Below, in pieces: positions 1 to 62,922 of a stretch of DNA of 64,000 nucleotides. Location of the stretch: positions 1,568,001-1,632,000 of the forward strand of contig CM000151.3 of assembly GCA_000004695.1 (NCBI GenBank), in the 5' to 3' direction. The notes beneath the pieces were generated by a model, which did no database searches, was not told the origin of the DNA, and saw only the letters and a program-made list of their open reading frames with translations. The translations under genes and the position numbers were made by a program. This DNA comes from Dictyostelium discoideum. Its lineage: Eukaryota. Numbering within the stretch: position 1 is the stretch's first letter; every line of letters begins with the position of its first letter.

Positions 1-172
1 ATCTGTACTCTTTGTATACCCAGCAGGACAATTACAATTGTAACTACCTTGAGTATTTGCGCAGGTAGCTGGTGAAACACATTTGTGAGTTCCAGTTGTG
101 CATTCATCAATATCAGTTGAACATACTGGGAAATTTGTATATCCATTTTGACATACACTTTGACCCTAAAGT

Positions 173-235
<63 letters not shown>

Positions 236-649
236 TTAATTAGAATTAAAAATTTTTATTTTCCCAACTTAAGTTTTTTTTTTTTTTTTTTTTTTGTTTT
301 GTAAAATAAAAAAATACTTACATAGTCCCAAACTGAAACTACTCCAACTTTGGCTCCGGGACTGCTTTCACATGATGCTCTACCAGCTTGTGAAACAGAT
401 GGAGAAGAATTTACTTCGAAAACTGTATTTGGATATAATGGGACATCACATTTAAATGATACAAAATATCTATTTGTATTATCCAAAGTATCATTTTGGT
501 TTGACCATGGTGAAGTTGTAGCTCCATCACCACAGGACCCACCAACTGAACGAAAAACAGACATATCCGTAATAACTCTAGCCATTTGGCAATCCTTTTT
601 ATTAATATTATTATTTTTATTATTATTATTATTTTTATTATTATTATTA

Positions 650-742
<93 letters not shown>

Positions 743-983
743 TACATATTTTTGAAAAATTAGTAAATTATTTAAAAAAAATAAATTTCATTATCATTAA
801 AAATAAACATACAACTGAATTTACTTGATTATTTTTTATATTATGATAGTTCCAAGCTTTTAATGTGGCCCCAGCTGGGCAATTTGGTGCTGCTGTATAA
901 CCAAGATAAACATTGTTTACACCAGAAGATGTTATACACTAAATTCAAGGATAATAAATTTAATAATAAGTATACAACCATTT

Positions 984-1017
<34 letters not shown>

Positions 1018-1430
1018 CAAAAAAAAAAATACAAAAAAAAATACAAAAAAAAAAAAAAAAATCAATTTATTATTATTTTTTAATGGTACTTACATAAGAA
1101 GAACTAATTAAGGTTGAGCCTGAGTGACAATTATTGCTACCCTTTATTATCGAATATTACATAGTTTAAATTATTATTTTTGATTTTTAATATTTAAATA
1201 TTAATGATTTGGAGAAAAAAAAAAAAGAAAAGAAAAAAAAATAAAAAAAAAATAAAAAATAGTTGATGTTAGTGGGGGTTAAAAAATTCCGAGTGATCGA
1301 TTTAAATCACACACTTACAGGATTCCATGTGTATCCACTTGGACAAATTTGTCCAAATGAAAAAGAAGTTAAACTATTTAAAAAAATAAAAACTAATAAT
1401 AAATTAGAAATCAAATTTAATTTCATTTTT
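1..1430 (-). CDS. Secreted cysteine-rich protein with calcium-binding EGF-like domain. The 3' part of the gene continues beyond the window start. Proposed exons (minus strand): 1323..1430, 1094..1141, 825..938, 322..594, <1..165
   Basis: Met plus signal peptide MKLNLISNLLLVFIFLNSLTSFS starts at 1430. GTAAGT/GTAAAT donors (reverse complement 'acttac' at 1088 and 316, 'atttac' at 819) and AG acceptors keep phase 0 across all junctions. The last visible exon encodes ...CSTDIDECTTGTHKCVSPATCANTQGSYNCNCPAGY, which carries the D-x-D-E-C cbEGF signature. Introns consist of (AAT)n, (ATT)n and poly-A. Confidence 0.55.
606..735. repeat. (ATT)n microsatellite of about 130 bp, intronic in the gene at 1..1430
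   Basis: Uninterrupted tta/att triplet run seen in the sequence. The III.../YYY... ORFs over this run in the ORF track are translation artefacts. Confidence 0.9.
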
Positions 1431-1865
1431 TAATTATTATTTTTTATATGAAAAATTGAAAATAAAGGGAATAAAGGGATTAAAAAAAAAAAATGATATT
1501 GTTGCTGGGAAAAATTATCATTGCGCGGAGTTTGTGTGAGAAAAACGTTCGAAAAAATGAAAAATAAATAAAAATCATTGAAAAGGAAGATATCAGTGGT
1601 TTTTTGAAATGAAAGCAGTTGGAATGAATCCATTTAATAAAAATATATGCTTGTCGGGTTTTTCTATGACAGATGATCATAGATAGAGTAGATATTTTGG
1701 ATTTCAAAAAATATCACACACTTTTTTTTTTTGATTTTTATAATTTTATTTTTTTCATTTTTTTTTTGATTTTTTTTTTTACCAACCGTCAACCAGCACC
1801 AATTTTATTTAATTTCGTCAAAAAAACAGTTCAAAAATTAATACGATTTTTGACTATAAATAATA

Positions 1866-2030
1866 CCAGGGTCTTAAATGAAATAAACAAATTTAACATT
1901 ATGATTCTAAATTTGTAAAATTTTTTTATAAAAAAAAAAAAAAATTTTTTTGTTTTTATTATTTTTTTTTTTTTAAAAATTTTACAAATTTAGAATCATA
2001 TTGTTAAATTTGTTTATTTCATTTTAATTT
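1866..2030. repeat. Large inverted repeat with about 49-bp arms (one mismatch) around a spacer of about 60 bp that is itself an A15/T-run palindrome
   Basis: Left arm 'taaatgaaataaacaaatttaacattatgattctaaatttgtaaaattt' (1866-1916). Right arm 'aaattttacaaatttagaatcatattgttaaatttgtttatttcatttta' (about 1978-2028) is its reverse complement. A partial third copy lies at about 2090-2125. Confidence 0.8.
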
Positions 2031-2335
2031 AATAATTTCATATTTTATATCTTTTTTTTTAAAAAAATATAAAATAATAAAGATAAAAAATTCTAAATTT
2101 GTTTATTTTATTTTAATTTTTAATTTTATATTTTATATCTTTGTTTTTTTTTTTTTTTTTAAAAAAAAAAAATATTTAAGGATTTAGGTTTGGTATAATA
2201 AAAATTATTAACAACTCGAAAAAAATAAGATTACATAGATTTATAATCTCCCCACTCTTAATTAATATATAATTTCAATTTTCTAATCATACAACTTTCA
2301 TTCTAAATATGAATAATTCCAACACGGGGCACATA

Positions 2336-2382
<47 letters not shown>

Positions 2383-2389
2383 CAAAAAA

Positions 2390-2594
2390 ATTTAAATTCA
2401 TTTAATAGATTTTCTGTTATTACTTTTTAAATTATCTTAAAAATTATTTTATAATATAAAACTTTTTATATCAAAAAAAAAAAAAAAAAAAAAATTTATT
2501 TCTTTTAATTTCAATTATAAGATAATTAAAAATTCATTTAATAGATTCTGTGTTATTATCCTTTTAAATAATCTTAAAAAATATTTTATAACAC

Positions 2595-2632
<38 letters not shown>

Positions 2633-2680
2633 AATTTCTTTTAATTTCAATTATAAAATAATTAAAAATTCAAATAATAA
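2390..2680. repeat. Tandem duplication of a unit of about 135 bp (two copies)
   Basis: 'ttcatttaatagatt(t)tctgttatta..tttaaat(t/a)atcttaaaaa(a)tattttataa' and 'tttcttttaatttcaattataa(g/a)ataattaaaaattca' each occur twice in the same order, about 135 bp apart. Confidence 0.75.
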
Positions 2681-2827
2681 TTATTTCATTAAAAAAAATA
2701 AAAAAAATAAAAACAAAGAAAGAGTATTTAAGGAATGTAATTTCTTTTTTTTTTTTTTCATTTCAAAAATAAAACAATTAAAACAACAATTAAACTCAAA
2801 CAAATAATATCAAACAAATAAATAAAA

Positions 2828-3463
2828 ATGACACACACTAAATTAAAAGGTAATATATTAAAAATATTATTTTTGAAATTATTATTATTTTAATTAACTT
2901 TTATTTTATTATATTTTAATTTATTTTTTATTATTTTAGAAGGAGACGTTTCACCAAACTTTAATGCACCAGACCAAAATGGAATTCGTTTAACCTTGGA
3001 TGATAGTAAATTCCAGAATAAAACTATAATAATTTTCTTTTATCCAAAGAATGAAAGTAAATCTGGTGCAAATATGGCACGTGAATTTAGAGATAACTAT
3101 CAAATTCTAAAAACATTACAATGTGAAGTAATTGGAGTTAATTATGATGATCACCAAAAAAACCAACAATTTGCCCAATTTAATGATATTCCATTTTCAA
3201 TGTTATCTGATACTGATGGAGCAATTGCAAGAAGATTTGGAGTTCACAAAGATTTGTTAATTTTTCCTTCAAAAACAACATTTGTTATTAACAAAGAACA
3301 TAGAATTGATACTATTTATTCGAATCCAATTAAAGTTGAATCACATCTAAAACAAGCATTAAAAGCTGTTGAAAAAATGAAAAATTCACCACAAAATTCT
3401 ACCAATCATACTGTAGCTTCTAATACAACAACAAACCCTGCTGTTAGTAATCCAATTTCATAA
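2828..3463 (+). CDS. PrxQ/BCP-family peroxiredoxin-like (thioredoxin-fold) protein lacking both catalytic cysteines. Exons 2828..2849 and 2940..3463
   Basis: ATG at 2828. The first exon MTHTKLK ends in phase 1 at the donor gtaata. The acceptor ttttag lies at 2934-2939. The product ...LKEGDVSPNFNAPDQNGIRLTLDDSKFQNKTIIIFFYPKNESKSGANMAREFRDNYQ...MLSDTDGAIARRFGV aligns with E. coli BCP '[26 protein letters not shown]...LLSDEDHQVCEQFGV', but TPGC becomes SKSG and the resolving Cys becomes Arg. The C-terminal tail is S/T/N-rich. Confidence 0.7.
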
Positions 3464-3509
3464 TTTTTAATAATAAAAATTGTTTCCTCCGTTTCTAAAT
3501 TAAAAAATA

Positions 3510-3554
<45 letters not shown>

Positions 3555-4221
3555 AACAAAAAAAAAAATTCTTCAAAATAAATATTTTTATTTTTATTAT
3601 TATTTATTTTGATTGCAGTAACAATGTAATAATATTTATTCTTTACAAAAAAAAAAAAAAAAAATAAAAAAAAAATTAAAAAAAAAGTTGAAAAAAAAAA
3701 AAAAAAAAAAGGATTTGGTTTTTTTTTAGGGATCTAAGTAAACTGGGCGTTCGTGTGTGCAATATATAATTTTAATTTGGAATTCTTTTTTAATTTTTAT
3801 TTTTTTTATTAAAAATTTTAATTAATCTAAATGTATACATTCTTTTTTTTTTTTTTTGTTATTATTTTTTTATTTTTTTTTTTTTTTTTTTTTTTTAATT
3901 TTTTTTTGTTTTTTTTTTTTAATTTAAATAATTAATTAATTTTTAAAACATATCTCAAATAAAAAATAAAAAAAAAAATAAAAATAAAAAAAAAAAAAAA
4001 AGCGCAAACGTCGTCAAAAAATTTAAAAAAAAAAAAAAAAAAAAATCTAGCTTGTTAACAATTAAAAATCAAAAAATCAAAAGAAAAAAAGAGAATAATA
4101 AAAATAATAAAATAAATTTAAAATTTTAATAATAATAAAAATAATAATAATAATATTAAAAAAAAAATCAAAAAAAAAAAAAAAAAAGAGATTACCTGTT
4201 GTTTATTTTCCATTCCCACAA

Positions 4222-4265
<44 letters not shown>

Positions 4266-4925
4266 ATTTTTTTTTTTTTTCAATTTTCAAAACAAAAAAT
4301 AATTTTTTATTTTATTTTTTATTTTTTTTTTTTATTTTTTTTTTTTATTTTTTATTTTTTTTTTCTCACAAAACATTCACACAAGCCCAAATTTATAATC
4401 CAATCAACATTGACCAATAACAATCCAACAAATTTTTTTTTTTACACTGTGTGAATTATTATATTAAAAACAAAAAAATAAAATAATTTTAAAAAAAAAA
4501 AGATTTCAAATAAAAATAAAAAAAAAAAACTCTCATAATTATGTGTAGAGTTGAATAAAACAATAAAATATTTAAATAATATCTTGAATAAAAAAAAAAA
4601 AAAAAAATAAAAAAAAAAAAAAAATAAGCAACCTCAAGCTGTCAATCAATAAAAATAAAAATAATAATAATATCACTACAAATTGTACTACTAGATTAAA
4701 ATAAAAATTTAATATTTTTTAAGTTTTTACATCAATTTATTTATTTATTCGGTTCAAATATATACAAAAGTTTTATTAGTAGTATATATATTTTAAAATA
4801 TCTTAAAAAACATCCCTCATCACAAATCTCAAAAAAAAACTCAAAAAAAAAAAAAAACACAAAACCACACACACAATAATTGATCTTTTCTTTTTATATA
4901 AATAAATTAAATAATTCATATTGAA

Positions 4926-11568
<6,643 letters not shown>

Positions 11569-35439: not shown

Positions 35440-35899
35440 ATATTTTATTGTAATAAAAAACAATAATAATAAAAAAATAAAAAAATAAAAATATTAAAAC
35501 TTTGTAGATTATTTATAAAAATTATAAATAGAAAAAATAATAGTAAATAAAAGAAAAAGATATATTTTTATTTTAAATGTTGTTATTAAACATTTTTTGT
35601 GAACAATTGATGGACCAGATTGAGTTAATTTCCGAATACCAGGAGTTAACACCAATTTAGTAATTATACCACTTGGTTTTACAATCTCTAATATTTGAAG
35701 ATAAAAAAATTCAAATGACTACTTCAACCGATATTCGTTCATGATTTCCAATTAAAAATAATATTAAAAAATCAAAAAATAATAATAATAAAAACAAAGA
35801 AAAGAGATAAATTTAAAAAATATATCAATTTTTTTTTTTTTTATTATAAATTTATTTTTAAATGTTTTTTAAGAGTTTTTGTGAAAAATTGATGGACCA

Positions 35900-36950
35900 T
35901 ATTCATCATATTCTTGTCTTGTGACATACAGTTGTAGGAAAGTTGAGAGTGAAGCTAAATAGATCCATCAATCCATACAGAATTTTTACGTTCTGGTGGT
36001 GAAACGATGTTAATGTTCGTGTTAGAAGGTGTTAAAGCAGTTAATTCTTTATTCAAACGATCAGCAAAACCTGGTAGCATGGTTGTACCACCTGACAATA
36101 AAATGCAACCATACAAATCATTTTGAATATCAACATCACACCTCTTGATTGAATTATAAGTTGATTGGTGAATACCAGCTGATCCCATACCTAATAATGA
36201 TGGTTTGAAGAGGGCTTCTGGACAATGGAAACGTTCATTTCCATCGTAATGACTTGACCATCTGGTAATTCGTATGATGTTGAGTTGGCAGCAGTTTTCA
36301 CTTCAGTTTCAAAATCTAAAGCAACGTAGGCGATTTCTCTTTGATATCTCTGACAATTTCTCTTTCGGGCAGTTGTGGAGAATGAGTTACCACGTTCGCT
36401 CAACATTTTCATCATGTAGTCAGTGAGATCATTACCAGCTAAATCTAAATGTAAAATGGAATTTGTCATAGCTTTACCTTCATAAATTGGTACAGTGTGG
36501 GAAACACCACCACCTGAATCAATAACGATACCAGTGGTACGACCAGAAGCGTATAATGATAAGATGGCTTGAATGGAAACATACATGGCTGGAATGCCAT
36601 AACATTCAAACATATATTGAGCCATTTTCTCTGTGTTGACTTTTGGATTAAATGGAGGTTCAGTTAAGAAAACTGGGTGTTGATCTGAAGAGACACAAAG
36701 TTGATCGTTGAAAGCATGATTCCAAAATTTTTTCCATATTTTCCCAGTTAATAATAATAACTTTTTCAATTGGATATTCGAGTCGTTCCAGATCTCTCTT
36801 TGATTGAGCATCATTACCTACATATGAATCAACTTGACCTATTTTCGGTTTGGAAAAACCAACAACTGATGGGAAAGCATGTGGTGATTCATCTCCAGAA
36901 AAACCGACTTTAATAATAGAAGAACCATTATCAATAACTATGGTTAACAC
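35900..36950 (-). pseudogene. Actin pseudogene, divergent and with frameshifts
   Basis: Three minus-strand ORFs in different frames (36660..36950, 36191..36814, 35955..36188) each translate to actin-like sequence (VIDNGSSIIKVGF..., ...[24 protein letters not shown]..., ...[22 protein letters not shown]...). The 3' end keeps a degraded copy of the actin stop-codon region. Confidence 0.75.
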
Positions 36951-37367
36951 AACAACACTTGTTTTTCAATCATTTTTATTTATTGTATTGTAATAAAATG
37001 ATATAAAAAAAACTAATTCTTGGCAAATTTTTGTATTTAACAATAAAATAAATTTTATTTATTTTTATTTTTTATTGTAAAGTTGTTTAATGAATAACTT
37101 TAGATACCGATTATTTTCGAATTCTATTAATCGTTTTAAGCAAATTAAACACAAAAAAAAAAATTTTTGTAGTTGGATTTGCAAAAAAAAAAAAAAAATC
37201 GAAAAAGGTTTTGAAAATTAATATTGTGCGGATTAGCCAAATCTAACATTTTTTAATTTTTTTTTTTTAAATTTTTCAAATCAAACACTTTTTTTTTTTT
37301 TTTTTTTTTTTTTTTTATTTGTTTTTTTTTTTTTTATTATTTTTTTTTTTTTATTATTTTTCTTTTT

Positions 37368-37934
37368 TCACCTTTTTCTTTGGTATTGATTTCTTTTTTT
37401 TTCAGACCAGAAGTTTAGGCTTTGGCGATAAAATCCAATGAACAGTTCTTTGTTTTTAATTAGAGAATTATCGATGGTGTCAATAATCTCATCAAGGAAG
37501 GACCCATGGGAATTACGTTCTCGGTAGAAATGGTTCTTGATATAGCCAAAGAAACGCTCAATGGGATTCAACTCTGGAGAATAGGAAGGAAGAAATATCA
37601 ATTGAACCGAATATTGATTAAACAATTCAAATAGTGCATTTAAAGCTTCGATACCACCGTGAATTGGAGCATTGTCCATTACCAATAATGAACCAGGCTT
37701 GCAAAATCCACTTTCCAAAAGTTCTCTAACATATTGAAAGAAGTCTTCAGTATTATTGGTTTTATCACGGATTTTATACAAACAATCATCCAAACTGATG
37801 GTGAAAAACCCATTGTAGGTCTCAGAAATGCTGGTGCTATTGGTAACATAAACCGGCTCTCCAATCGGTCCAACAGCTTTAGATCTCCTTAATTCTAATA
37901 AAAAACCTTATTAGTTTTAATTATTTATTTTGTA

Positions 37935-37996
<62 letters not shown>

Positions 37997-38724
37997 TAAT
38001 TACCTTATAATGTTAATAGTGGAATTCAGAATGGATGGAAAGAAAGACAATTATTTAATTAAAAATATTTTTTAAAAAAAAAAAAAAAAAAATTAGTATA
38101 AATATTTATATTCAATCTAAAATAATAAAATATAATACCTCTAGAAGAAAATGAGCATTCATCTAAAAAATAAATTTTTTTCCAATCAGTATTGTAAATT
38201 ATTGTATTAAAATAAAATAATTTTAATAAATTTTCAATTTTGTATTTATTTTCCTAAAAAAAAAAAAAAAAAATTAACAAATAGTTAGTTATTTAATATA
38301 TTAAAACTTTTTTACTTACTTGTTTATAGGTTGGAGAGTGGTAATTCCATTTCAATTCTTTGAATATTGAACATATCCTCGATTTGTTGACCTTTTTATA
38401 AAAAATACTATTTTGATCTGAGTTAATTTCTTGGGCGATCTCCCTCATTGTGAGATTAGGTCGGACATTAACCATTGCTACCACAGTTGCCACCAAGAGT
38501 TCATACTGTTCTGTAGTAAATGTACTTGGAGATCTGGAGCCGCCATGGGATTGTCTAATTCTATTATCTTTGATATCTCTACGGTAATAATTGAGTTGAT
38601 TTCTGGTCAAACCATTTTCACGAGCAGCTCTACTTATATTACCGATTCTAACCCCATATTCTAATGCATTGTATATTCTCTCAGTATGCTCAATTAAGTG
38701 AGTTAAACTTCTTTTAGGTTTCAT
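37368..38724 (-). mobile_element. Tc1/mariner-superfamily DNA transposon transposase gene (possibly the Dictyostelium DDT family) with one intron. Exons (minus strand) 38316..38724 and 37368..37894
   Basis: The N-terminal exon is a paired/Tc1-type HTH (…GNISRAARENGLTRNQLNYYRR…). The C-terminal exon carries the DDE_3 signatures VMDNAPIHGG and LPSYSPELNPIERFFGY. The donor is 'gtaaaa' and the acceptor 'tttattag'; this pairing was chosen by phase. The first catalytic D is not evident (SISET), so the copy may be inactive. No TIRs were identified. Confidence 0.55.
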
Positions 38725-38728
38725 TATA

Positions 38729-38990
38729 TTGTTATTACTATTATTACTACTATATTGCTATTGCTATCACTATTGTTACTATTATTACTACTATATTGCT
38801 ATTACTATTATTACTATTACTACTATATTTCTATTGCTATTACTGTTATTACTATTATTACAATTATTACAATTATTACAATTATTACTACTATATTTCT
38901 ATTGCTATTACTATTACCATTACTACTATATAGCTATTGCTATTAATATTTCTATTTCTATTTCTATTACAATTATAAATATAATTAATT
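38729..38990. repeat. Complex (TTA/CTA/TTG)-rich minisatellite directly upstream of the transposase start
   Basis: 'attactattattactactatattgctattgctat...' units are repeated irregularly. The LLLL/YYYY ORFs over this region in the ORF track are artefacts. Confidence 0.8.
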
Positions 38991-39204
38991 ATATTATTAT
39001 TTTGGTTTTATTAATTATGTTTTTTTAATTGTTTTTATTATTATAAACTGCAAGTGGTTTTTTTATTTAAAATAAAAAAATGATCATTTTAACCAAAAAT
39101 GTAGATGTGATGGTTTATTATTATAAAAACTATGGCCAATTGTATTTCATTTTATTTATAGTTGGTTAAAATAATGAGTGAATTTTTTTTTTTTAACTGT
39201 GAAA

Positions 39205-39295
39205 CATTTCCCCCACTTTTTTTTAAATTAAAAAAAGAAAAATAGTTGGAGATATTTTCCCCCACTTTTTTTTAAATTAAAAAAAGAAAAATAAA
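39205..39295. repeat. Tandem direct repeat of about 46 bp, two copies ('atttcccccacttttttttaaattaaaaaaagaaaaata')
   Basis: Seen in the sequence. The units start at 39209 and 39254. Confidence 0.8.
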
Positions 39296-39841
39296 ATAAA
39301 ATAAAAATAAAATCTTTTATCAAAACAAAGATAACTTTTTTAATTTTTTTTTTATTTTAAAAATAATAATAATAATAATAATAATATTAATAATAATAAT
39401 AATAATAATAAAAATAAATAAATAAATAAAATTCAATTTATTTTATTTCCAAAAAAATTTTAGTATAAAATATTTTTATTGTATAGTTTTAAATTTTTAA
39501 AATAAAAAAAAAAATATTCATAATAATTAACTTAGAAAGTTTTTTAATATTTTATAGCGAGTTTAAACCCTTTTTTTATTTTTTTTTTTTTTTTTTTTTT
39601 TTTTGTTTGACTTAAGTGAGTTTTTTTAATTTTTTTTTTTATGATTAATTTGCTCAAAACGCACTATATCTAACTCGCAAACAAAATAAAAATAATTTCA
39701 AAAGTTAATTAAAAAAATCAAAAAAAAAAAAAAAACAATTAAACAAAACTAAAGAAAACAAGATTTGTTTTGAAATATAAATAATTTTTTTTTTTTTTTT
39801 TTAAAAATACAACAATATTTTTTTTTTCTTTATTTATAAAT

Positions 39842-40981
<1,140 letters not shown>

Positions 40982-42102
40982 TTAATTGTATTTATTATTA
41001 TATTAGAATGATTAAAAAAAAAAAAAAAAATTAGTTTTTAAACTTTTTTTTTTTTTAATAATTTTTATAAAAAAAAAAATAAAAAATAAAAAATTGGGTT
41101 TTGGAAGATTTTTTTTTGGGGTTGGGTTTTGTTTTTTTTTTTTTGAAATTGGCTTTGTATTTTTTTTTTTTTTTTCATGAAAACCTTTTTAAAAATAATT
41201 AATAGTTTTGTTAAATTTCTTTTTTTTTTTTTTGGTTGAATTAAATTAGCAACAATATCATAATCATCGTCACAATCACAACCAAAAATACATTATACTA
41301 CTTTTCTTGGTTGCCACAGATACAATAATAAACAGTATTATTCACAAATCACTATCGATTACATAATAATAATCAAAATAATCATGAATCTTCTTCACAC
41401 AAAGATATGGGCCAACCAAAATCAACAGCAAAATCTACCGCAACAATAACATGTATTGATAGCTTTGTTTAAAGATGAGAATATGTTAAGCACATTATGG
41501 TTAGTTTGGAGAATGATCGTTGAAGAGTTATACAATTTAATAAAGAGAAATTTATTATCACCAAATCATTAAAAGAGGGTACTATTGGAAAATGCCATCA
41601 CTATTGTATTTGAAAATCATGAAACTATTGCTTTAATTGGTAAAGAATGTTGTTCCACTAGGAATACTTTTATCTATTCCAATTTCAATACTTTTGTTTC
41701 ACATCAACTGTACTAGATATAGATATTCAACAGAAACAACTACTTCAACAAATTCAACAAGTTTACTATTTTTTAACTCAGTTGACAGAAATAGTATTGG
41801 AGTGGTATAAGTAGGAAAATTGTAGAATAGTAATAGTAGAGGTTATGGCACAAGTAGAAAAAATAGTAGAGAAATTGGTTAGAATCCACTACCGTCTACT
41901 GCCATGGAACCAATACAAACAACTCAATAATCAAATTTCTATTTTAAAAATGAAGTTTCAGATATTTTGCTAAATGATAAATATCAAAAATGAAAGTTTA
42001 GAGAGTAATATAGTAGTCTCAAGTAGAAAACCATGCATTCCCTAAATTAGAGGTAAAAAGAAATGCATATTGGTGGTTAAAAAAAATTTTTTTCATCAAA
42101 AA

Positions 42103-42172
42103 GCCCGTGTCGTATAGTGGTTATTATATCTGTCTTGTACTATGTGCACAAAGCGATAACAGAGGGTCCTCA
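42103..42172 (+). tRNA. 5' portion of a tRNA gene (anticodon TGT, Thr-type reading) including an 18-nt intron, truncated within the T stem by a retroelement insertion
   Basis: Acceptor GCCCGTG. T8. D stem GTAT/TTAT with the canonical D loop AGTGGTTA. Anticodon stem TCTGT/ACAGA. Loop c-t-TGT-a with the intron 'ctatgtgcacaaagcgat' after position 37. Variable loop GGGTC. Then CTCA-, the start of the T stem. Confidence 0.55.
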
Positions 42173-42338
42173 AACCGCACCGCGATCAAGAGGATACAAG
42201 ATACACGTGAAAAGTAATTCATCCTTTTCTATCCTTAATCTCGGTCAATTTTAACCAATCTTTCAAAAAAAATCACCAATCCACCACGATCTACAGATCT
42301 AATTTACCAAATCGCCGATTCAAAGGAATCCCATCGAG

Positions 42339-43592
42339 ATGAATTCCTACGCAGACGCGGCTAAAATGGCCAACCCCTCCACCCATATGGACGAGGCATC
42401 AGAGAACTTCATTAAGGAATTCTCCACAAAAACAGCAGAGATAAAGGAGACCTACCCCAAATTATCAATAGGCCTCAAAGACATCTCCAAATACTGCGAG
42501 ACCATATTGAACATGACTGCTCTCTCAACCTACGAGAAAAACAACGGATTCTACCCAATTACACTCGAATTCCCCAAAATGGATCTCATGGGGTTAGAAG
42601 AAATGAGAAAAACACTCTCAAACTACGATATCCCAATCGACAAGATATACATAGGCAAAGGAACTAGAAAAACGATCCACCTGATGATTAAAAACGAACA
42701 ATCTCTCCTAAATATCATTAGAGATAGAAGCAAATTGGGAACCTTCATCACCTCCAGTAGAGACTACCACGTCCTCACAGGAAGAGTAAGAATTCCAAGA
42801 GAAAAGGCAGGAATAGTGGATGCCCTCATCAAAACTGCCTTTGCAGAAGAAATACCCTATGCAATATACCATACTATATACTCCACCGACCACCTCCTAG
42901 TATTCGGTCTAATAGAATGCAAAATAGGCGATCAAATGAAATCTGGCCAACACAATACAGAAATCGCCAACTTTACCATCAGAACGGCCACCAAAACCTA
43001 CTCCTCACAAAAGAAAAATAAGAAAGTAGAGTCAAACAACACGGAAGAACCATTAGAAGATGAGATGACAGATGATCCTCCCAACATCCAAAACAGGATA
43101 GCAATCAAATCCTCTCAACCAAAACCACAACAACAAACAAACAACCCAGCAAACAATAAGTCTGATAAACAATCAACCCAAGAGAAAAAAGCCCAATCAA
43201 AAAAGTCCTCTCAACCTCTTCCCCCCAAAAACCAAGCAGAATCTCAATCTGTCAAACCCACCACAACCACTACCACAACATCCAACGCCATCCAAAAAGA
43301 CAATGCCAACAAAACGAGCACTAACATCCATTCATCCTCGGAAAACAGAGAGAAGACACCAAACATCCCTCCATCACATAAACGCAAGAACGAGGAAATC
43401 CACTCAAACAACGAGGTCACCCAACTCTCACCAACAATAAACAGAAGCAACCCTTACATCCCATCCACCCCTAAGACACCTGTCAATAAAGAAAGGAAAG
43501 GAATCATTGAGAGCTTCATAGAGAGTATCTACCCTTCACCATCCAAACCGCAGCTAAACGACTCCCAAGAGGAGATCGATATCATCTCATAA
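42339..43592 (+). CDS. Retrotransposon ORF1 (417 aa), basic with a P/T/Q/N-rich C-terminal half
   Basis: First long ORF of the element. It ends in a TAA that overlaps the ORF2 ATG. Confidence 0.8.
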   Translation: MNSYADAAKMANPSTHMDEASENFIKEFSTKTAEIKETYPKLSIGLKDISKYCETILNMTALSTYEKNNGFYPITLEFPKMDLMGLEEMRKTLSNYDIPIDKIYIGKGTRKTIHLMIKNEQSLLNIIRDRSKLGTFITSSRDYHVLTGRVRIPREKAGIVDALIKTAFAEEIPYAIYHTIYSTDHLLVFGLIECKIGDQMKSGQHNTEIANFTIRTATKTYSSQKKNKKVESNNTEEPLEDEMTDDPPNIQNRIAIKSSQPKPQQQTNNPANNKSDKQSTQEKKAQSKKSSQPLPPKNQAESQSVKPTTTTTTTSNAIQKDNANKTSTNIHSSSENREKTPNIPPSHKRKNEEIHSNNEVTQLSPTINRSNPYIPSTPKTPVNKERKGIIESFIESIYPSPSKPQLNDSQEEIDIIS

Positions 43593-46500
43593 TGGTAGTA
43601 ATCAAAATCAACCAATGGAATGTCAGAGGTTGGGGCACTGACACCTCCTTCAAAAACAAAACAGACTTTATCAAATCCCAATCCCCCCCAAACTCATTGG
43701 CACTAACCATAGTCAATGAACTCAACGCCGACGCAACACAAGCACACCAGCTATTTCCTGGCTCCATCATTAGCGCAACCAACAGAGGCAACGGAATAGG
43801 AATACTAAACCACAACAACCAAAACATAAAACTCTCACCAATATTCATAATAGAAGGTAGACTAATAATATCAGACATTCTAATAAAAGATACCACAACG
43901 AGAATCTTGGCCATATACGCCCCGGCCCAACCTGATAAAAGAAAAACACTAGCTTCAACACTAAACAAACACTTCAACAACCAATACCACAACCTAACGT
44001 CTAACCCTAAAAAAAACATCGACATCATAGCAGGCGACTTCAATTGTTTAGACTTCAATGACAATCACACATCAAATGATGACCAAGGCAACTTGACAAC
44101 ACAATCCCCAGATGAGATGGCCACAGTAATCGAAGCCATCAGAATTTCAAATAACCTAATGGATATGGACCAACTAAATAAAAGACCCACCTTCTCAAGA
44201 ACGATACACAACACAAACAATAACCTCACAAGAATCTTGGAAAGGAGACTAGACAGAATATACCTTAACAATAGCATAATCAACTACAGCCAATTATACT
44301 TAAGGAACCTAATCCCCCCAAAAATTAATGACATACCTCTATCAGATCACAACTTCCTATCAACCACCTTCACTCTACCCAACATACAGATGAACAAGCG
44401 CAGATGGAGATTAAAAAAATCCTCAATCCTCTCAAGCATAATGCTTAAGAAAATAGACTTCCTACTTAACGATTATTCAAGGGAGCTGTCATCCAACCAT
44501 AACTCTATTTCCTTCTCTCAACTCAACAGCTTACTAAACAAAATAAAACAACTATACACAGAATTTCAAAAACAAAATGACTACAACAATAAGGCAAACA
44601 TCAAAAATCTAATCTCCCTACTAGAGACAGAATTTAAAGACCAAGCCTTCGCAACCCTTTCAGCAATAAATGAATCTAAAAAAAGAGAAGAACAACTTAA
44701 ACAAGAATTGAACAACTATTGCGAAGAAACCTCACTCAAGTACATCTCCGCGAGAATCAAGAAAAGACACAATGATTTCACCATCAACGCAGTAAAAGAT
44801 GCACAAGGTAGAACAATCAACAAACAGGAATTGATCGAAGAAGAATACGTAAAATATTACTCAAATCTTTATGACTACAAAGAAGATGACCCACCATCTC
44901 ATTATGAAATGTTGGAAAATTGGACAGTGACCAGGGACTCAACATGGGACAACCTTGAAAATGAATTCACATCACAAGAGATCCTAGAAGTAATAAAACA
45001 ATTGAACCCACACAAATCTCCAGGCCCAGATGGAATTCCAAACTTATTCTACATAACACACAAAGAAAAACTAGCTCCAATACTGGCCTCAGCATTCAAC
45101 GACACTCTAAGAAATCCTCATCTAATTAGCAAAAATTACAAAGAAGGCCTCATTATCACGATACCTAAAAAGGGAGACCCCGAACTAATCAAAAACAGAA
45201 GACCAATTACACTGGCTAACTGTATATATAAAATCCACTCAAAACTAATAAACAATAGAATAATCCCAATACTAACGAAAGTGATCAACCACAATCAAAA
45301 AGGTTTCGTACCAGGCAGATTCATTATAGATAATATCATATCAATGAACGAATTAATCAACTATTGTAATGATAAAAGAATTAACGGAATAATTACACTA
45401 TATGATTTCGAAAAAGCTTTTGACTCGATCTCACACGGTTCAATACTCAGATCACTACAACACATCAACATTCCAACCAATATAATCAACCTGATAATGA
45501 ATCTACTCACCAAATCTGAAGCAAGAATTGAAATTAATGGTAGAACTACTATACCCTTTGAGATCAAAAGAGGAGTTAAACAAGGAGATCCACTATCACC
45601 CACCCTGTTCGTCCTTGTAATAGAGGCTTTAGCTAGAAAAATTTTACAAGATGACCGAATTACTGGCCTTCCTCTAAACAACAGCAACCACAGAGAGAAA
45701 TTCCAAAGCTTTGCAGACGACTCGGCTTCAATGGTCCCAGACTCTCAACAACTTGAATTAGTACTACAACACTTCAATTCATTTTGCAAAGCCACTTCCT
45801 CAAAACTAAACATCGACAAATCTTCATCAATTCTTATAGGCAACCCAGACAATACCAACCAAAGAATTCCAATATCTACAAATCCAGAAAGATACTTGGG
45901 ATACTTCTTCACAGGCAAAGGGATAACAAGAAAAATGCCAGAAATATTAAACACAATAAGATCATCCTTAGTACTATGGAAAACCACTGACTCAACAATC
46001 AAAACCAAAACCAACATCCTCAAAGCATTCGCACTCTCTAAATTAACCTACTATTCATATGTAGAGAACTTTAAGGAAGAGGAATTAAACCAAATCAATA
46101 AATTAGTCGAATGGTTTTTATCGGCACCAAACAACAAAAATGCTAGTGGATTTCAAGTTATTAATTTAATGAGAACCAAAAGAGCAAGATACCCACTAAA
46201 AGTAGGGGGCTGGAACATTTGGAATATAGAATTGAGACAACTGGCGCAGAAACTTTGGATCATAAACCAGTTCATCCTAGCACTAGAAACCAAACAAACA
46301 AACTCATCTCATCACAAAAGCTGGGAATATCAGATCCAAAAAAACAAATTCACATCCAGATACCTAAAAGAAAACTTAGACGAATGGAACAAAATAAGAA
46401 TAAAAAAAGCAATCTTCAACAATAATCTCACATCCATAAAAAACGAAAATGGACAACCACTTTCACTGGCAGAATGGTATACCACAATTCAAGACCAAAA

Positions 46501-47296
46501 TCCAACCATCCCTAAAACGGAATTCCAATCATCTCTAAACTTAAGAGGCTACAGCTATAATCAACTCTTCAACAACATACTGAAGATAAAAGACCCTAAA
46601 ACAAGAGACACAATGTTTAGATTCCATGCCAGATGCCTTCCAATAAACTACCTTCACAACAAACAATGCCCACTCTGCAAAGAAGATATGAGCAAAGACC
46701 CATACGGTCACCTGTTCTTCTCATGCAAGAAAACAAAACAATTCATAAAAATAAATAAACTCAAAAATTTCATCTATATTACCACAGGCAAAGGTAAAAA
46801 CTGGCACCATACAAGAATTAGGCAAAATAACAATTTCATTAATAGAATAACTCCAAAATTATCACCGACAGCCAAAAAAGATCAAGAAGTGAATGCAGAT
46901 TACGCCAACCACAGATTCCACAAAGAATACTTTGAATGGAACTATAAAGCAATAGACTATGATCTAACTAGATCATTCGCATATAGAAACCTAATGGCCC
47001 TTATCCTCCACAACATTTGGATTTGGATTTGCAATCAAATATACAGTGAAGATCCTTTAACAGATGAATCACTATCATACAGCTCCCTTCTAAAGAAATG
47101 GCACAAATTGGCCACTCTAGAATACATCAAAAAAGCAAAAGATCTGAAAAACTTATCAGCAAAAGACCATAATAACTTCAAAGATCCTAAGATCCTTCTC
47201 ACTTCAACGATCAAGTTAAGAAAAACAACAGCTAATTACTATTGTATTCCAGAATCATCTCTCCCAAATATTATATCTTTTGATCAATTCATATGA
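43592..47296 (+). CDS. Retrotransposon ORF2 (1234 aa): apurinic-endonuclease-like N-terminus, reverse transcriptase, C-terminal Cys-rich domain
   Basis: The N-terminus is MVVIKINQWNVRGWGTD (L1-type EN start). The RT blocks are YRPISL-like 'RRPITLANCIYKI', 'FEKAFDSISHGSIL' and 'SFADDSASMV'. Confidence 0.85.
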   Translation: MVVIKINQWNVRGWGTDTSFKNKTDFIKSQSPPNSLALTIVNELNADATQAHQLFPGSIISATNRGNGIGILNHNNQNIKLSPIFIIEGRLIISDILIKDTTTRILAIYAPAQPDKRKTLASTLNKHFNNQYHNLTSNPKKNIDIIAGDFNCLDFNDNHTSNDDQGNLTTQSPDEMATVIEAIRISNNLMDMDQLNKRPTFSRTIHNTNNNLTRILERRLDRIYLNNSIINYSQLYLRNLIPPKINDIPLSDHNFLSTTFTLPNIQMNKRRWRLKKSSILSSIMLKKIDFLLNDYSRELSSNHNSISFSQLNSLLNKIKQLYTEFQKQNDYNNKANIKNLISLLETEFKDQAFATLSAINESKKREEQLKQELNNYCEETSLKYISARIKKRHNDFTINAVKDAQGRTINKQELIEEEYVKYYSNLYDYKEDDPPSHYEMLENWTVTRDSTWDNLENEFTSQEILEVIKQLNPHKSPGPDGIPNLFYITHKEKLAPILASAFNDTLRNPHLISKNYKEGLIITIPKKGDPELIKNRRPITLANCIYKIHSKLINNRIIPILTKVINHNQKGFVPGRFIIDNIISMNELINYCNDKRINGIITLYDFEKAFDSISHGSILRSLQHINIPTNIINLIMNLLTKSEARIEINGRTTIPFEIKRGVKQGDPLSPTLFVLVIEALARKILQDDRITGLPLNNSNHREKFQSFADDSASMVPDSQQLELVLQHFNSFCKATSSKLNIDKSSSILIGNPDNTNQRIPISTNPERYLGYFFTGKGITRKMPEILNTIRSSLVLWKTTDSTIKTKTNILKAFALSKLTYYSYVENFKEEELNQINKLVEWFLSAPNNKNASGFQVINLMRTKRARYPLKVGGWNIWNIELRQLAQKLWIINQFILALETKQTNSSHHKSWEYQIQKNKFTSRYLKENLDEWNKIRIKKAIFNNNLTSIKNENGQPLSLAEWYTTIQDQNPTIPKTEFQSSLNLRGYSYNQLFNNILKIKDPKTRDTMFRFHARCLPINYLHNKQCPLCKEDMSKDPYGHLFFSCKKTKQFIKINKLKNFIYITTGKGKNWHHTRIRQNNNFINRITPKLSPTAKKDQEVNADYANHRFHKEYFEWNYKAIDYDLTRSFAYRNLMALILHNIWIWICNQIYSEDPLTDESLSYSSLLKKWHKLATLEYIKKAKDLKNLSAKDHNNFKDPKILLTSTIKLRKTTANYYCIPESSLPNIISFDQFI

Positions 47297-47393
47297 TTAA
47301 AATAACCCTTCAGCTTAAATGATAAGCCTTTAAATAAATATTAAATAAAACTCGTATTAACACAGATGGACATATATCAATCTTGTTAATCCA

Positions 47394-47432
<39 letters not shown>

Positions 47433-47437
<5 letters not shown>

Positions 47438-47465
47438 GTCCTCAGTTCGATTCTGAGCTCGGGCA
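47433..47465 (+). tRNA. 3' portion of the same tRNA: target-site duplication copy, T arm, acceptor 3' strand and discriminator A, followed by a T6 Pol III terminator
   Basis: agagggtc-CTCAG-TTCGATT-CTGAG-CTCGGGC-A then tttttt. Joined with 42103-42172 (minus one target-site duplication copy) it gives 91 nt, which is a 73-nt tRNA plus the 18-nt intron. Confidence 0.6.
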
Positions 47466-47494
47466 TTTTTTCCTCCTAGACAGGATGGATCAAT

Positions 47495-47505
47495 GGTTCG
47501 AATCT
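47495..47505 (+). promoter_or_regulatory. Extra B box (exB) downstream of the tRNA gene
   Basis: 'ggttcgaatct' is a 10/11 match to the B-box consensus GGTTCGANTCC. It lies about 30 nt 3' of the tRNA terminator. Established knowledge: many D. discoideum tRNA genes carry a downstream exB box. Confidence 0.5.
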
Positions 47506-53638: not shown

Positions 53639-53951
53639 CTTACATTGAAGTTAAATTAAAAAAACCAACAAACTCATTGGGCATTGGATTTATATCATCA
53701 ATATTACTGTGTAAAATTATTTCTGTAATATAACTTCCAAAACATTTAAAACTAATTCCATCACACAAAATATTTTCTTTACCAACGAATTCCTTATCGC
53801 TATAAATGGGTTGAATGGTATTATTTCCATGATTATTTAGAATCCCCACTGCTAAATTATATTCAGTTCTTATGATTGCATTATTAATTCCAATTAATAA
53901 TGTTATTATTAATACCAATATTAAAAATAAATTATTAATATAATATTTCAT
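48616..53951 (-). CDS. Large type-I membrane receptor-like protein of about 1558 aa: signal peptide, leucine-rich repeats, eight tandem tenascin-type EGF repeats, IPT/TIG domain, EGF, S/T-rich stalk, transmembrane segment, short tail. Exons (minus strand) 53644..53951, 53316..53549, 53154..53243, 52941..53072, 52359..52826, 48972..52204, 48616..48827
   Basis: Signal peptide MKYYINNLFLILVLIITLLIGINNA. LRR exons (…NLVDNSNIGGL…, …NINLSDNLIGGFLPEIHNLNFTKNLDISNNNIVGTIP…). Donors are GTAAGT/GTATGT/GTTTGT (reverse complement 'acttac' at 53310, 53148, 52935, 'acatac' at 52353, 'acaaac' at 48966). Introns are (AAT)n/(ATT)n or poly-A. The summed exon length of 4677 nt is a multiple of 3. The EGF repeat is CP.S.C.GHGYCDT..G.C.CD..HQGAGCEM.L.SCPT.N...CSGWGTCN.QTG.C.CD..R.G.DCSG. 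IPT: ...PCTTSGGQVTIYGWFSNQHINLTVTIGGVECV.... The last exon reads ...NWVIPVAVVVPVVCVSLLTLGAILIYRKHRY.... Confidence 0.65.
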
Positions 53952-61713: not shown

Positions 61714-62922
61714 ATGCCAATTTCAATTTCATTTAAAAAATCAGAAATATTTATAAATTATCCATTGGTTTATTTGCAAAATGTAGCATATCAACCAAAA
61801 GAAACAGTAATTTATAAAACAGATTATCTTGTAACTAGTGGTTGTAAAGATACACCAAGTGATCATACATGTCCAGGTGCAACAGAAATCAATGGTAAAT
61901 TAATAAGAGATAGTCAAGGATTTTGTTGTAGTTGTTAAATGTCTGATTATATTGATGCTGATCAAAATTCAAGAGCAAATTTAGGTTGTTCACTATTAGG
62001 TTCCCAATCATCATCAGCACACTGTTTATCATTTAGTCCAATGAAATATGATGTTTATAATATTGCCAAAACTCAAGTTGAATATAAAATCACAGCAACA
62101 TTAACCTATAGTTATAATCAAAATCCAATCACTCAAGATATAATTTTATCAAATTCAAATCCAATGGGAATGGATTCATTCAGCCAAGCTATGATTAGAA
62201 TTGTTGGCGATTTTCAATCGTCAACTCAAATTAATCAATTCACTGATAAGAAAGTTGTGTTTCCATATAATCAACCAAATTCAATAAATACTGCTATGTT
62301 GTTAGACCAGAATTTCTTTGATTTGTCAGGGTTAACATGTAATAAAATTGGGGTTTCCTATAGTGCCTTTCAAAATCAACCAAATAAATGTGCAGCTTTA
62401 TTTGGGTCTTGCCTTCAAAATCAAATCGCTGATTATTATAATGCTGATGTCACATTAATTTCAAATGGAAAGAAAGGAAACTATATTGCATCTCAATTTG
62501 GTACAAAAGTTGCAGGTGACCAAAATTCAAGATCATTGAAAATTAGATTCGATGAATCTCATAGAACAATGTTAACAATTACATTGAAAGCTGATTCACT
62601 TCAATATAGAGTTGATATATCACCAGGTAAAATTATAAGTTATCAAATCGATCGATTTGAGTCAATGTCAAAAAATGGTATATTAAGAGTAAAAGTTCAA
62701 AATATTGGTACAATTAATTCAGATTATACATTGGCAATAGTTAATTGTTCAGGTGATATTAATCCTATAGATAGTAAAGATGTAACCATAAAATCAAAGG
62801 AAATTTATAGTTTTGAATTTCAAATTTTTACAACTTCAAAATTAGATTCATCTTATCAATGTTTTGGTGATTTATATAATGAAGTTGCTCAAGTTATCCA
62901 TAGTTGCCCATGCCAAAATTAA
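61714..62922 (+). CDS. Cysteine-containing extracellular-type protein whose single reading frame is interrupted by one in-frame TAA at 61936..61938. It may be a pseudogene, a sequencing error or two separate products. It is probably missing upstream exon(s). There is a possible HAP2/GCS1-like motif (low confidence).
   Basis: ORFs 61714..61938 and 61939..62922 share a frame ('...INGKLIRDSQGFCCSC*MSDYIDADQNSRANLGCSLLGSQSSSAHCLSFSPMKYDVYNI...'). There is no signal peptide at 61714, so upstream exons are expected. Confidence 0.35.

Follow-up and report, generated by a model that had tools for sequence, protein, structure and literature searches.

A 64,000-nucleotide stretch of Dictyostelium discoideum AX4 chromosome 2, here called the window (NCBI GenBank assembly GCA_000004695.1, contig CM000151.3, positions 1,568,001 to 1,632,000 of the forward strand), contains an intron-containing tRNA-Thr(UGU) gene that is interrupted between tRNA nucleotides 52 and 53 by a 5260-bp retrotransposon. 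The gene and the retrotransposon have the following parts, given in window coordinates. UTR stands for untranslated region, ORF for open reading frame, LTR for long terminal repeat, aa for amino acids, TSD for target-site duplication and Pol III for RNA polymerase III.

42103..42172, + strand: 5' part of tRNA-Thr(UGU), with the intron and nucleotides 1-52 (called by ARAGORN after excision; aligned by Rfam in the identical empty-site gene)
42110-42120, + strand: A box, TCGTATAGTGG (read from the sequence)
42136-42138, + strand: anticodon TGT, within the 5' tRNA part
42140..42157, + strand: 18-nt tRNA intron, CTATGTGCACAAAGCGAT, at the canonical 37/38 position (ARAGORN)
42161..42172, + strand: left TSD copy, 12 bp, AGAGGGTCCTCA, equal to tRNA nucleotides 41-52
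42173..47432, + strand: TRE3 non-LTR retrotransposon of full length (probably TRE3-A); 5260 bp with and 5226 bp without poly(A)
42173..42338, + strand: 5' UTR of the element, beginning AACCGCACCGCGATCAAGAGG; its 5' end is common to six other full-length copies
42339..43592, + strand: ORF1, 417 aa
43592..47296, + strand: ORF2, 1234 aa; overlaps ORF1 in a TAATG stop/start and is in the -1 frame relative to it
47297..47398, + strand: 3' UTR of the element
47399..47432, + strand: poly(A) tail, 34 nt (read from the sequence)
47433..47444, + strand: right TSD copy, 12 bp, AGAGGGTCCTCA
47444-47454, + strand: internal B box, AGTTCGATTCT; the junction is at its first base
47445..47465, + strand: 3' part of tRNA-Thr(UGU), nucleotides 53-73 (ARAGORN; Rfam)
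47466..47471, + strand: T6 run, Pol III terminator of the tRNA gene (read from the sequence)
47495..47505, + strand: external B box (exB), GGTTCGAATCT, 29 bp beyond the tRNA 3' end

The split tRNA-Thr(UGU) gene

The initial annotation read the left flank of the element as the 5' part of a tRNA and the right flank as the rest of the same tRNA, followed by a T run and an exB. Both flanks are as described. The left flank carries tRNA nucleotides 1-52 and the intron at 42103-42172, and the remaining nucleotides, the T run and the exB lie at 47445-47505. The role of the T6 run as terminator follows from the established behavior of Pol III termination. The exB as a concept is described in PMC5911963.

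The 12-mer AGAGGGTCCTCA is found twice in the 64 kb, at 42161-42172 and 47433-47444 only, where the expected number is 0 (100 shuffles). The bases that border its two copies differ on both sides, so the TSD is exactly 12 bp. This is the direct duplication that had been noticed on both sides of the element, and its coordinates are unchanged. In silico excision of the element and one copy of the 12-mer produces a 91-nt gene. ARAGORN, with introns allowed, identifies this gene as tRNA-Thr(TGT), 73 nt with an 18-nt intron at 37/38, in agreement with the predicted lengths of exon and intron. The reconstructed tRNA has one mismatch (U6-U67), located in the acceptor stem. An identical, uninterrupted gene in another D. 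discoideum assembly (locus L002, described below) scores 47.6 bits against the Rfam tRNA model RF00005, which has a gathering score of 29. By the ARAGORN call and this Rfam score, the reconstructed gene is a tRNA gene. It has an A box, a B box, a T-run terminator and the Dictyostelium-specific exB.

As it stands in AX4, the split tRNA is detected across the whole window neither by ARAGORN nor by Rfam at the gathering threshold, and Rfam at E<=10 does not detect its 5' half within 42000-42400. No second tRNA gene is found in the 64-kb window by ARAGORN (introns allowed) or by Rfam at the gathering threshold. The A box and the B box are now 5.27 kb apart, a distance given earlier as 5.3 kb, and the tRNA coding sequence is broken. 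This copy therefore cannot yield tRNA. It would thus be a dead gene, silenced by the insertion.

The same features bear on whether the junctions are real. The Sanger-era assembly of the AX4 genome had difficulty with complex repeats, and a repeat copy could have been wrongly placed in the tRNA gene. The existence of a closely related assembly that lacks the insertion is consistent with such an artefact. However, an exact 12-bp TSD, a complete element with poly(A) and the presence of both gene halves demand real junction reads, and mis-joins do not generate target-site duplications. An error of the AX4 assembly is scarcely credible as the source of this structure.

The element and its other copies

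The element has no LTRs, ends in poly(A) at its 3' end and contains two intact ORFs. ORF1 matches no Pfam family. The same 417-aa ORF1 is present in the D. citrinum copies of the element. ORF2 encodes, in order, an endonuclease-like N-terminus, a reverse transcriptase (aa 524-771) and a Cys-rich C-terminus. The reverse transcriptase matches RVT_1 with 117 bits (Pfam). The match to Exo_endo_phos (19.3 bits, profile positions 3-225 of 225) is below the Pfam cut-off and the match to zf-RVT is weak; the endonuclease and zinc-finger domains on either side of the reverse transcriptase are candidates that these matches suggest only weakly. A 1059-aa product starting from 44117 is an exact match to DDB_G0272290 (XP_645264.1). 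The ORF2 homologues are all from Dictyostelium. No further copies of the element are present in the 64-kb window, where the only other matches are to poly(A) or A runs.

Copies for comparison were taken from D. discoideum and D. citrinum assemblies (loci L001, L006, L007 and L008 are among them). Over its full length, the element is 98.7% identical to the copies at L001 and L007 and 94.7% identical to the D. citrinum copies. Six other full-length copies begin with AACCG(T/C)ACCGC..., directly after unrelated flanking DNA. The possibility that the tRNA-like sequence is a leader carried by the element is rejected on this basis, as all six begin at AACCG right after their unrelated flanks. The 70 nt to the left of the AX4 element, whose presence in every copy would have made them part of the element, are flanking DNA and are missing from these six copies. 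The 12-mer is absent from all other fetched copies of the element and occurs once in each empty-site locus (n = 3), inside the tRNA. An origin of the TSD in the element consensus is likewise rejected, and the 12-mer is target DNA, found in the uninterrupted gene of three other genomes. The TSDs of the other copies are approximately 9-16 bp and these copies also have poly(A) tails.

In the seven loci where the fetched DNA includes a tRNA gene, the element is downstream of that gene and on the same strand (7/7). Six of these copies are 49, 81, 88, 104, 120 and 143 bp beyond the tRNA gene. The seventh, from D. citrinum, is 313 bp beyond its tRNA gene and 147 bp past a nearer B box. When distances are taken from the nearest B box or exB, all eight other copies fall between 41 and 154 bp. 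TRE3 elements are reported to insert 40-150 bp downstream of a tRNA gene, sharing its orientation, behind an internal or external B box (PMC5911963). By the position and orientation of its other copies, the element is identified as a TRE3. A TRE5 identity is rejected, with the orientation and position of the other copies being opposite to those of TRE5.

The published consensus lengths are 5229 bp for TRE3-A, 5279 bp for TRE3-B and 4734 bp for TRE3-C (PMC5006619). The AX4 element, at 5226 bp without poly(A), is within 3 bp of the TRE3-A consensus, and its ORF2 falls in the most abundant ORF2 cluster (79 members). Of the 67 Dd_TRE3-A copies, 13 are full length and 60 lie 14-228 bp 3' of a tRNA gene (PMC5006619, Table 1). 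Length and ORF2 cluster abundance indicate that the subfamily is probably TRE3-A. The initial classification as a TRE-type retrotransposon is borne out at the family level and can be narrowed to TRE3, probably TRE3-A, and not TRE5.

The distances from B boxes also bear on whether the tRNA-Thr gene was the target at all. The element could instead have been directed in the canonical way to another Pol III landmark upstream, with the tRNA-Thr gene as a bystander. A B-box-like motif with one mismatch, GGTTAGAATCC, is present on the + strand upstream of the element, at 41877-41887, and the D. citrinum copy that is 313 bp from its tRNA gene could be taken as a precedent for a distant landmark. However, a nearer B box lies 147 bp from that copy, and GGTTAGAATCC is 285 bp from the 5' junction, compared with 41-154 bp between the eight other copies and their B boxes. 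In GGTTAGAATCC the conserved C56 is replaced by A, and a replacement of C56 in a B box impairs TFIIIC binding. Apart from the tRNA-Thr gene, the 1.4-kb intergenic interval of the empty site yields no match to an RNA family in Rfam (E<=1), neither a tRNA nor another Pol III RNA. Targeting to an upstream landmark is very improbable. As a feature of the window, GGTTAGAATCC is isolated, with no tRNA around it, and is the only extra B-box-like motif.

Three of the comparison loci contain additional structures. In L006 (D. citrinum GCA_054859145.1), the stretch at 826-920, between the tRNA-Lys gene and the TRE3 copy, starts with AACCGTACC, and its first 9 nt are the same as the TRE3 5' end. An A-box-like TGGTGGAGTGG and a B box, GGTTCGAGTCT, follow, and the TRE3 copy is 147 bp past GGTTCGAGTCT. 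Neither ARAGORN nor Rfam identifies a tRNA in this stretch. L001 (positions 1-6308, D. discoideum GCA_054883475.1) is a head-to-tail TRE3 array with two copies 50 bp apart. In L008 (positions 2676-7418, same assembly), three 5'-truncated TRE3 copies are found in a row, the first of them 88 bp downstream of a tRNA-Arg(ACG) gene. Both arrays are consistent with the published remark that TREs make tandems and do not insert into each other.

The empty site in other genomes

The empty site that the initial annotation suggested looking for is found in three genomes, at L002, L010 and the D. citrinum locus L012. In L002 (GCA_054883475.1), the interval from the actin gene to the gene of a 201-aa protein is 1424 bp and contains the uninterrupted tRNA gene. 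This interval is identical (1424/1424) to the window sequence after removal of the element and one copy of the 12-mer. The neighboring 201-aa protein is an exact match to DDB_G0272198 (XP_645265.1) of D. discoideum AX4 chromosome 2. Over 16.6 kb, AX4 and L002 differ in homopolymer lengths and by three substitutions, and the element is the sole structural difference. By this measure, the AX4 and GCA_054883475.1 strains are nearly isogenic. The three substitutions, at window positions 53681, 53687 and 53793, are all inside 113 bp and may reflect either errors in the reference or a small conversion tract.

In L010, from a diverged D. discoideum strain, the uninterrupted gene is at the syntenic position between flanks that are approximately 90% identical. 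In L012, from D. citrinum, it is also at the syntenic position and the flanks are unalignable. The tRNA exons are identical in both (73/73). The intron varies, with one substitution in L010 and a length of 17 nt in D. citrinum. The exB is conserved in three other genomes, and in L010 and D. citrinum L012 it is kept despite the divergence of the flank around it. Because the exons are identical and the exB is kept while the intron and flanks have changed, the comparison indicates that the uninterrupted tRNA-Thr gene is under purifying selection and so would be a working gene.

The diverged strain and D. citrinum both have the uninterrupted gene, so the empty site is the ancestral state. On these alignments, the insertion in AX4 is the derived state and is recent. 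The reverse order of events would require the common ancestor of the two near-isogenic strains to have carried the insertion, with GCA_054883475.1 later losing it exactly through recombination between the two 12-bp copies. Direct repeats around an element can, in principle, mediate an exact deletion. However, the uninterrupted gene in L010 and D. citrinum makes the empty state ancestral, non-LTR elements have no excision mechanism and 12-bp repeats that are 5.3 kb apart are a poor recombination substrate. Precise loss is extremely unlikely. Because the insertion is absent from an assembly that is so nearly identical to AX4, it may have arisen de novo in the NC4/AX laboratory lineage, a reading that is possible but tentative.

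The assembly at L011 (D. discoideum GCA_054859385.1) is outside the empty-site comparison, as an inversion places the tRNA site beyond the fetched locus. The actin-gene segment (L011 4320-6246, window 39747-41684) is inverted in this strain when compared with AX4, with D. citrinum and with the other D. discoideum assemblies.

On the 5' side of the split gene, the window contains an actin gene on the minus strand (39842-40972) and a second, actin-like stretch (35876-36830) that is approximately 84% identical. A short ORF on the minus strand (38293-38724) is flanked by the actin gene and the actin-like stretch. In another assembly, the region that matches 35876-40972 carries the annotation of a single gene, and the product of this gene matches DDE_3 transposase and actin. 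This suggests a possible DNA-transposon remnant between the actin copies within 35876-40972. At the far end of the window, a near-palindromic hairpin at 62921-63007 matches the Rfam microRNA precursor family mir-7131, with 93.8 bits on one strand and 93.1 bits on the other (the gathering score is 74). This mir-7131-like hairpin starts at the last bases of the ORF at 61939-62922, whose product is DDB_G0272452, a HAP2/GCS1-domain protein.

Integration into the gene body and known systems

The structure of the locus is best explained by a recent, mis-positioned integration in which target-primed reverse transcription (TPRT) placed a full-length TRE3, probably TRE3-A, within the body of a conserved and functional tRNA-Thr(UGU) gene. 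The probability of this reading is estimated at roughly 0.88. A poly(A) tail, a short TSD of variable length and an intact 5' end are the signature of TPRT. From the geometry of the junctions, the element endonuclease would first nick the bottom strand between tRNA positions 40 and 41, and the freed 3' end would then prime cDNA synthesis on the poly(A) tail. A cut in the top strand would follow 12 bp onward, at the first base of the B box and between positions 52 and 53, and repair would duplicate the 12 bp.

Reviews state that TRE3 elements are "always" approximately 100 bp downstream of tRNA genes and call the association with tRNA genes "exclusive". The AX4 copy is outside this canonical downstream window, with its insertion between tRNA nucleotides 52 and 53 placed 21 bp inside the 3' end of the gene. 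Its junctions are 21-33 bp inside the 3' end and 35-47 bp upstream of the closest published TRE3-A position. The element is in the orientation of the tRNA gene, as is canonical for TRE3. The earlier remark that an insertion within the gene is atypical for these elements is therefore accurate in respect of distance; the distance rule is broken and the orientation rule is kept. Most likely, Pol III machinery recruited the pre-integration complex to this very gene and the cut was then misplaced. The recruiting factor would presumably be TFIIIC on the B box or exB, and the cut would be at the far edge of a broad or loose positional distribution that follows recruitment.

The same distances raise the question of whether the tRNA gene was hit by chance through untargeted, random integration. 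The site is outside every published TRE3 window, and the match in orientation would only be a 1-in-2 coincidence. However, tRNA genes are a small target. The D. discoideum genome is approximately 34 Mb. It has approximately 418 tRNA genes (PMC5633606), which at about 80 bp each occupy approximately 0.1% of the genome. All other copies examined adjoin a tRNA gene, in agreement with the exclusive association described in the literature. The nearest published TRE3-A position is 14 bp past a tRNA gene, and a random hit that also comes within 35-47 bp of it is very unlikely. Random integration is improbable overall.

Several points weigh against targeted but misplaced TRE3-A integration as a complete account. 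The canonical orientation is kept, but this has a 50% probability by chance. The term "recent" carries no date. The assignment to TRE3-A uses length and abundance, and the endonuclease domain that would make the nick is below the Pfam cut-off. Recruitment followed by a misplaced cut is a reading drawn from one event.

TREs are a textbook case of how retrotransposons persist in a compact, haploid genome, by inserting at fixed, "safe" distances outside tRNA genes. The AX4 locus is an exception to the published TRE3 rule and reveals no new element or mechanism. Its novelty is the insertion site, as the element family is known and this copy already has an AX4 gene identifier. In the literature that could be searched, neither an intragenic TRE insertion nor DDB_G0272290 is mentioned. 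The exception is documented within the reference genome, where a full-length copy with intact ORFs has destroyed its own landmark. Surveys that seek intact tRNA genes beside elements could not recognize a split tRNA that is invisible to ARAGORN and Rfam, and this copy could be one of the 7 of 67 TRE3-A copies without a tRNA-gene distance in the published survey. The insertion indicates recent TRE3-A movement, and the matched empty allele in a near-isogenic strain provides a clean before/after pair for TRE3 target choice. If the insertion did arise de novo in the laboratory lineage, it would be direct evidence of present-day TRE3-A mobility. The raw integration spectrum of TRE3-A, before selection, would then reach into tRNA gene bodies, and the "safe window" approximately 100 bp downstream would result partly from selection or TFIIIC occupancy and not from a precise molecular ruler.

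The element resembles canonical TRE3-A (formerly Tdd-3) in its two ORFs, the -1 frame of ORF2, the endonuclease-reverse transcriptase-zinc-finger layout and the poly(A). It is also similar in its TSD, which in this family varies between 9 and 16 bp, in its length, within 3 bp of the 5229-bp consensus, and in its orientation relative to the tRNA. It differs in position. Published copies are found past the tRNA 3' end and beyond the B box or exB, at 14-228 bp and typically 40-150 bp, whereas this copy directly precedes the internal B box within the gene and its target is destroyed.

TRE5-A (DRE) of D. discoideum is also a non-LTR retrotransposon that targets tRNA genes, and it has the same ORF2 architecture. 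Its targeting depends on TFIIIB and TFIIIC (PMC5911963). Unlike the element described here, TRE5 inserts 40-54 bp upstream of tRNA genes in the opposite orientation, and it has modular A/B/C UTRs and a 5647-bp consensus (PMC5911963, PMC5006619).

Yeast Ty3 and the dictyostelid elements DGLT-A and NLTR-A are placed by the Pol III complex within a few bp of tRNA genes (PMC5911963). However, Ty3 and DGLT-A are LTR elements with an integrase, and NLTR-A belongs to a distant non-LTR lineage. All three have their insertion sites upstream of the gene, with no reports of copies within the coding region. The Dada DNA transposons of fish and other animals, as outlined in PMC8869645, do insert inside tRNA and snRNA genes and rely on multicopy targets. 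In Dada, which are DNA transposons, a specific intragenic target is the norm, whereas the split tRNA-Thr(UGU) gene of AX4 is a single exception for a retrotransposon.

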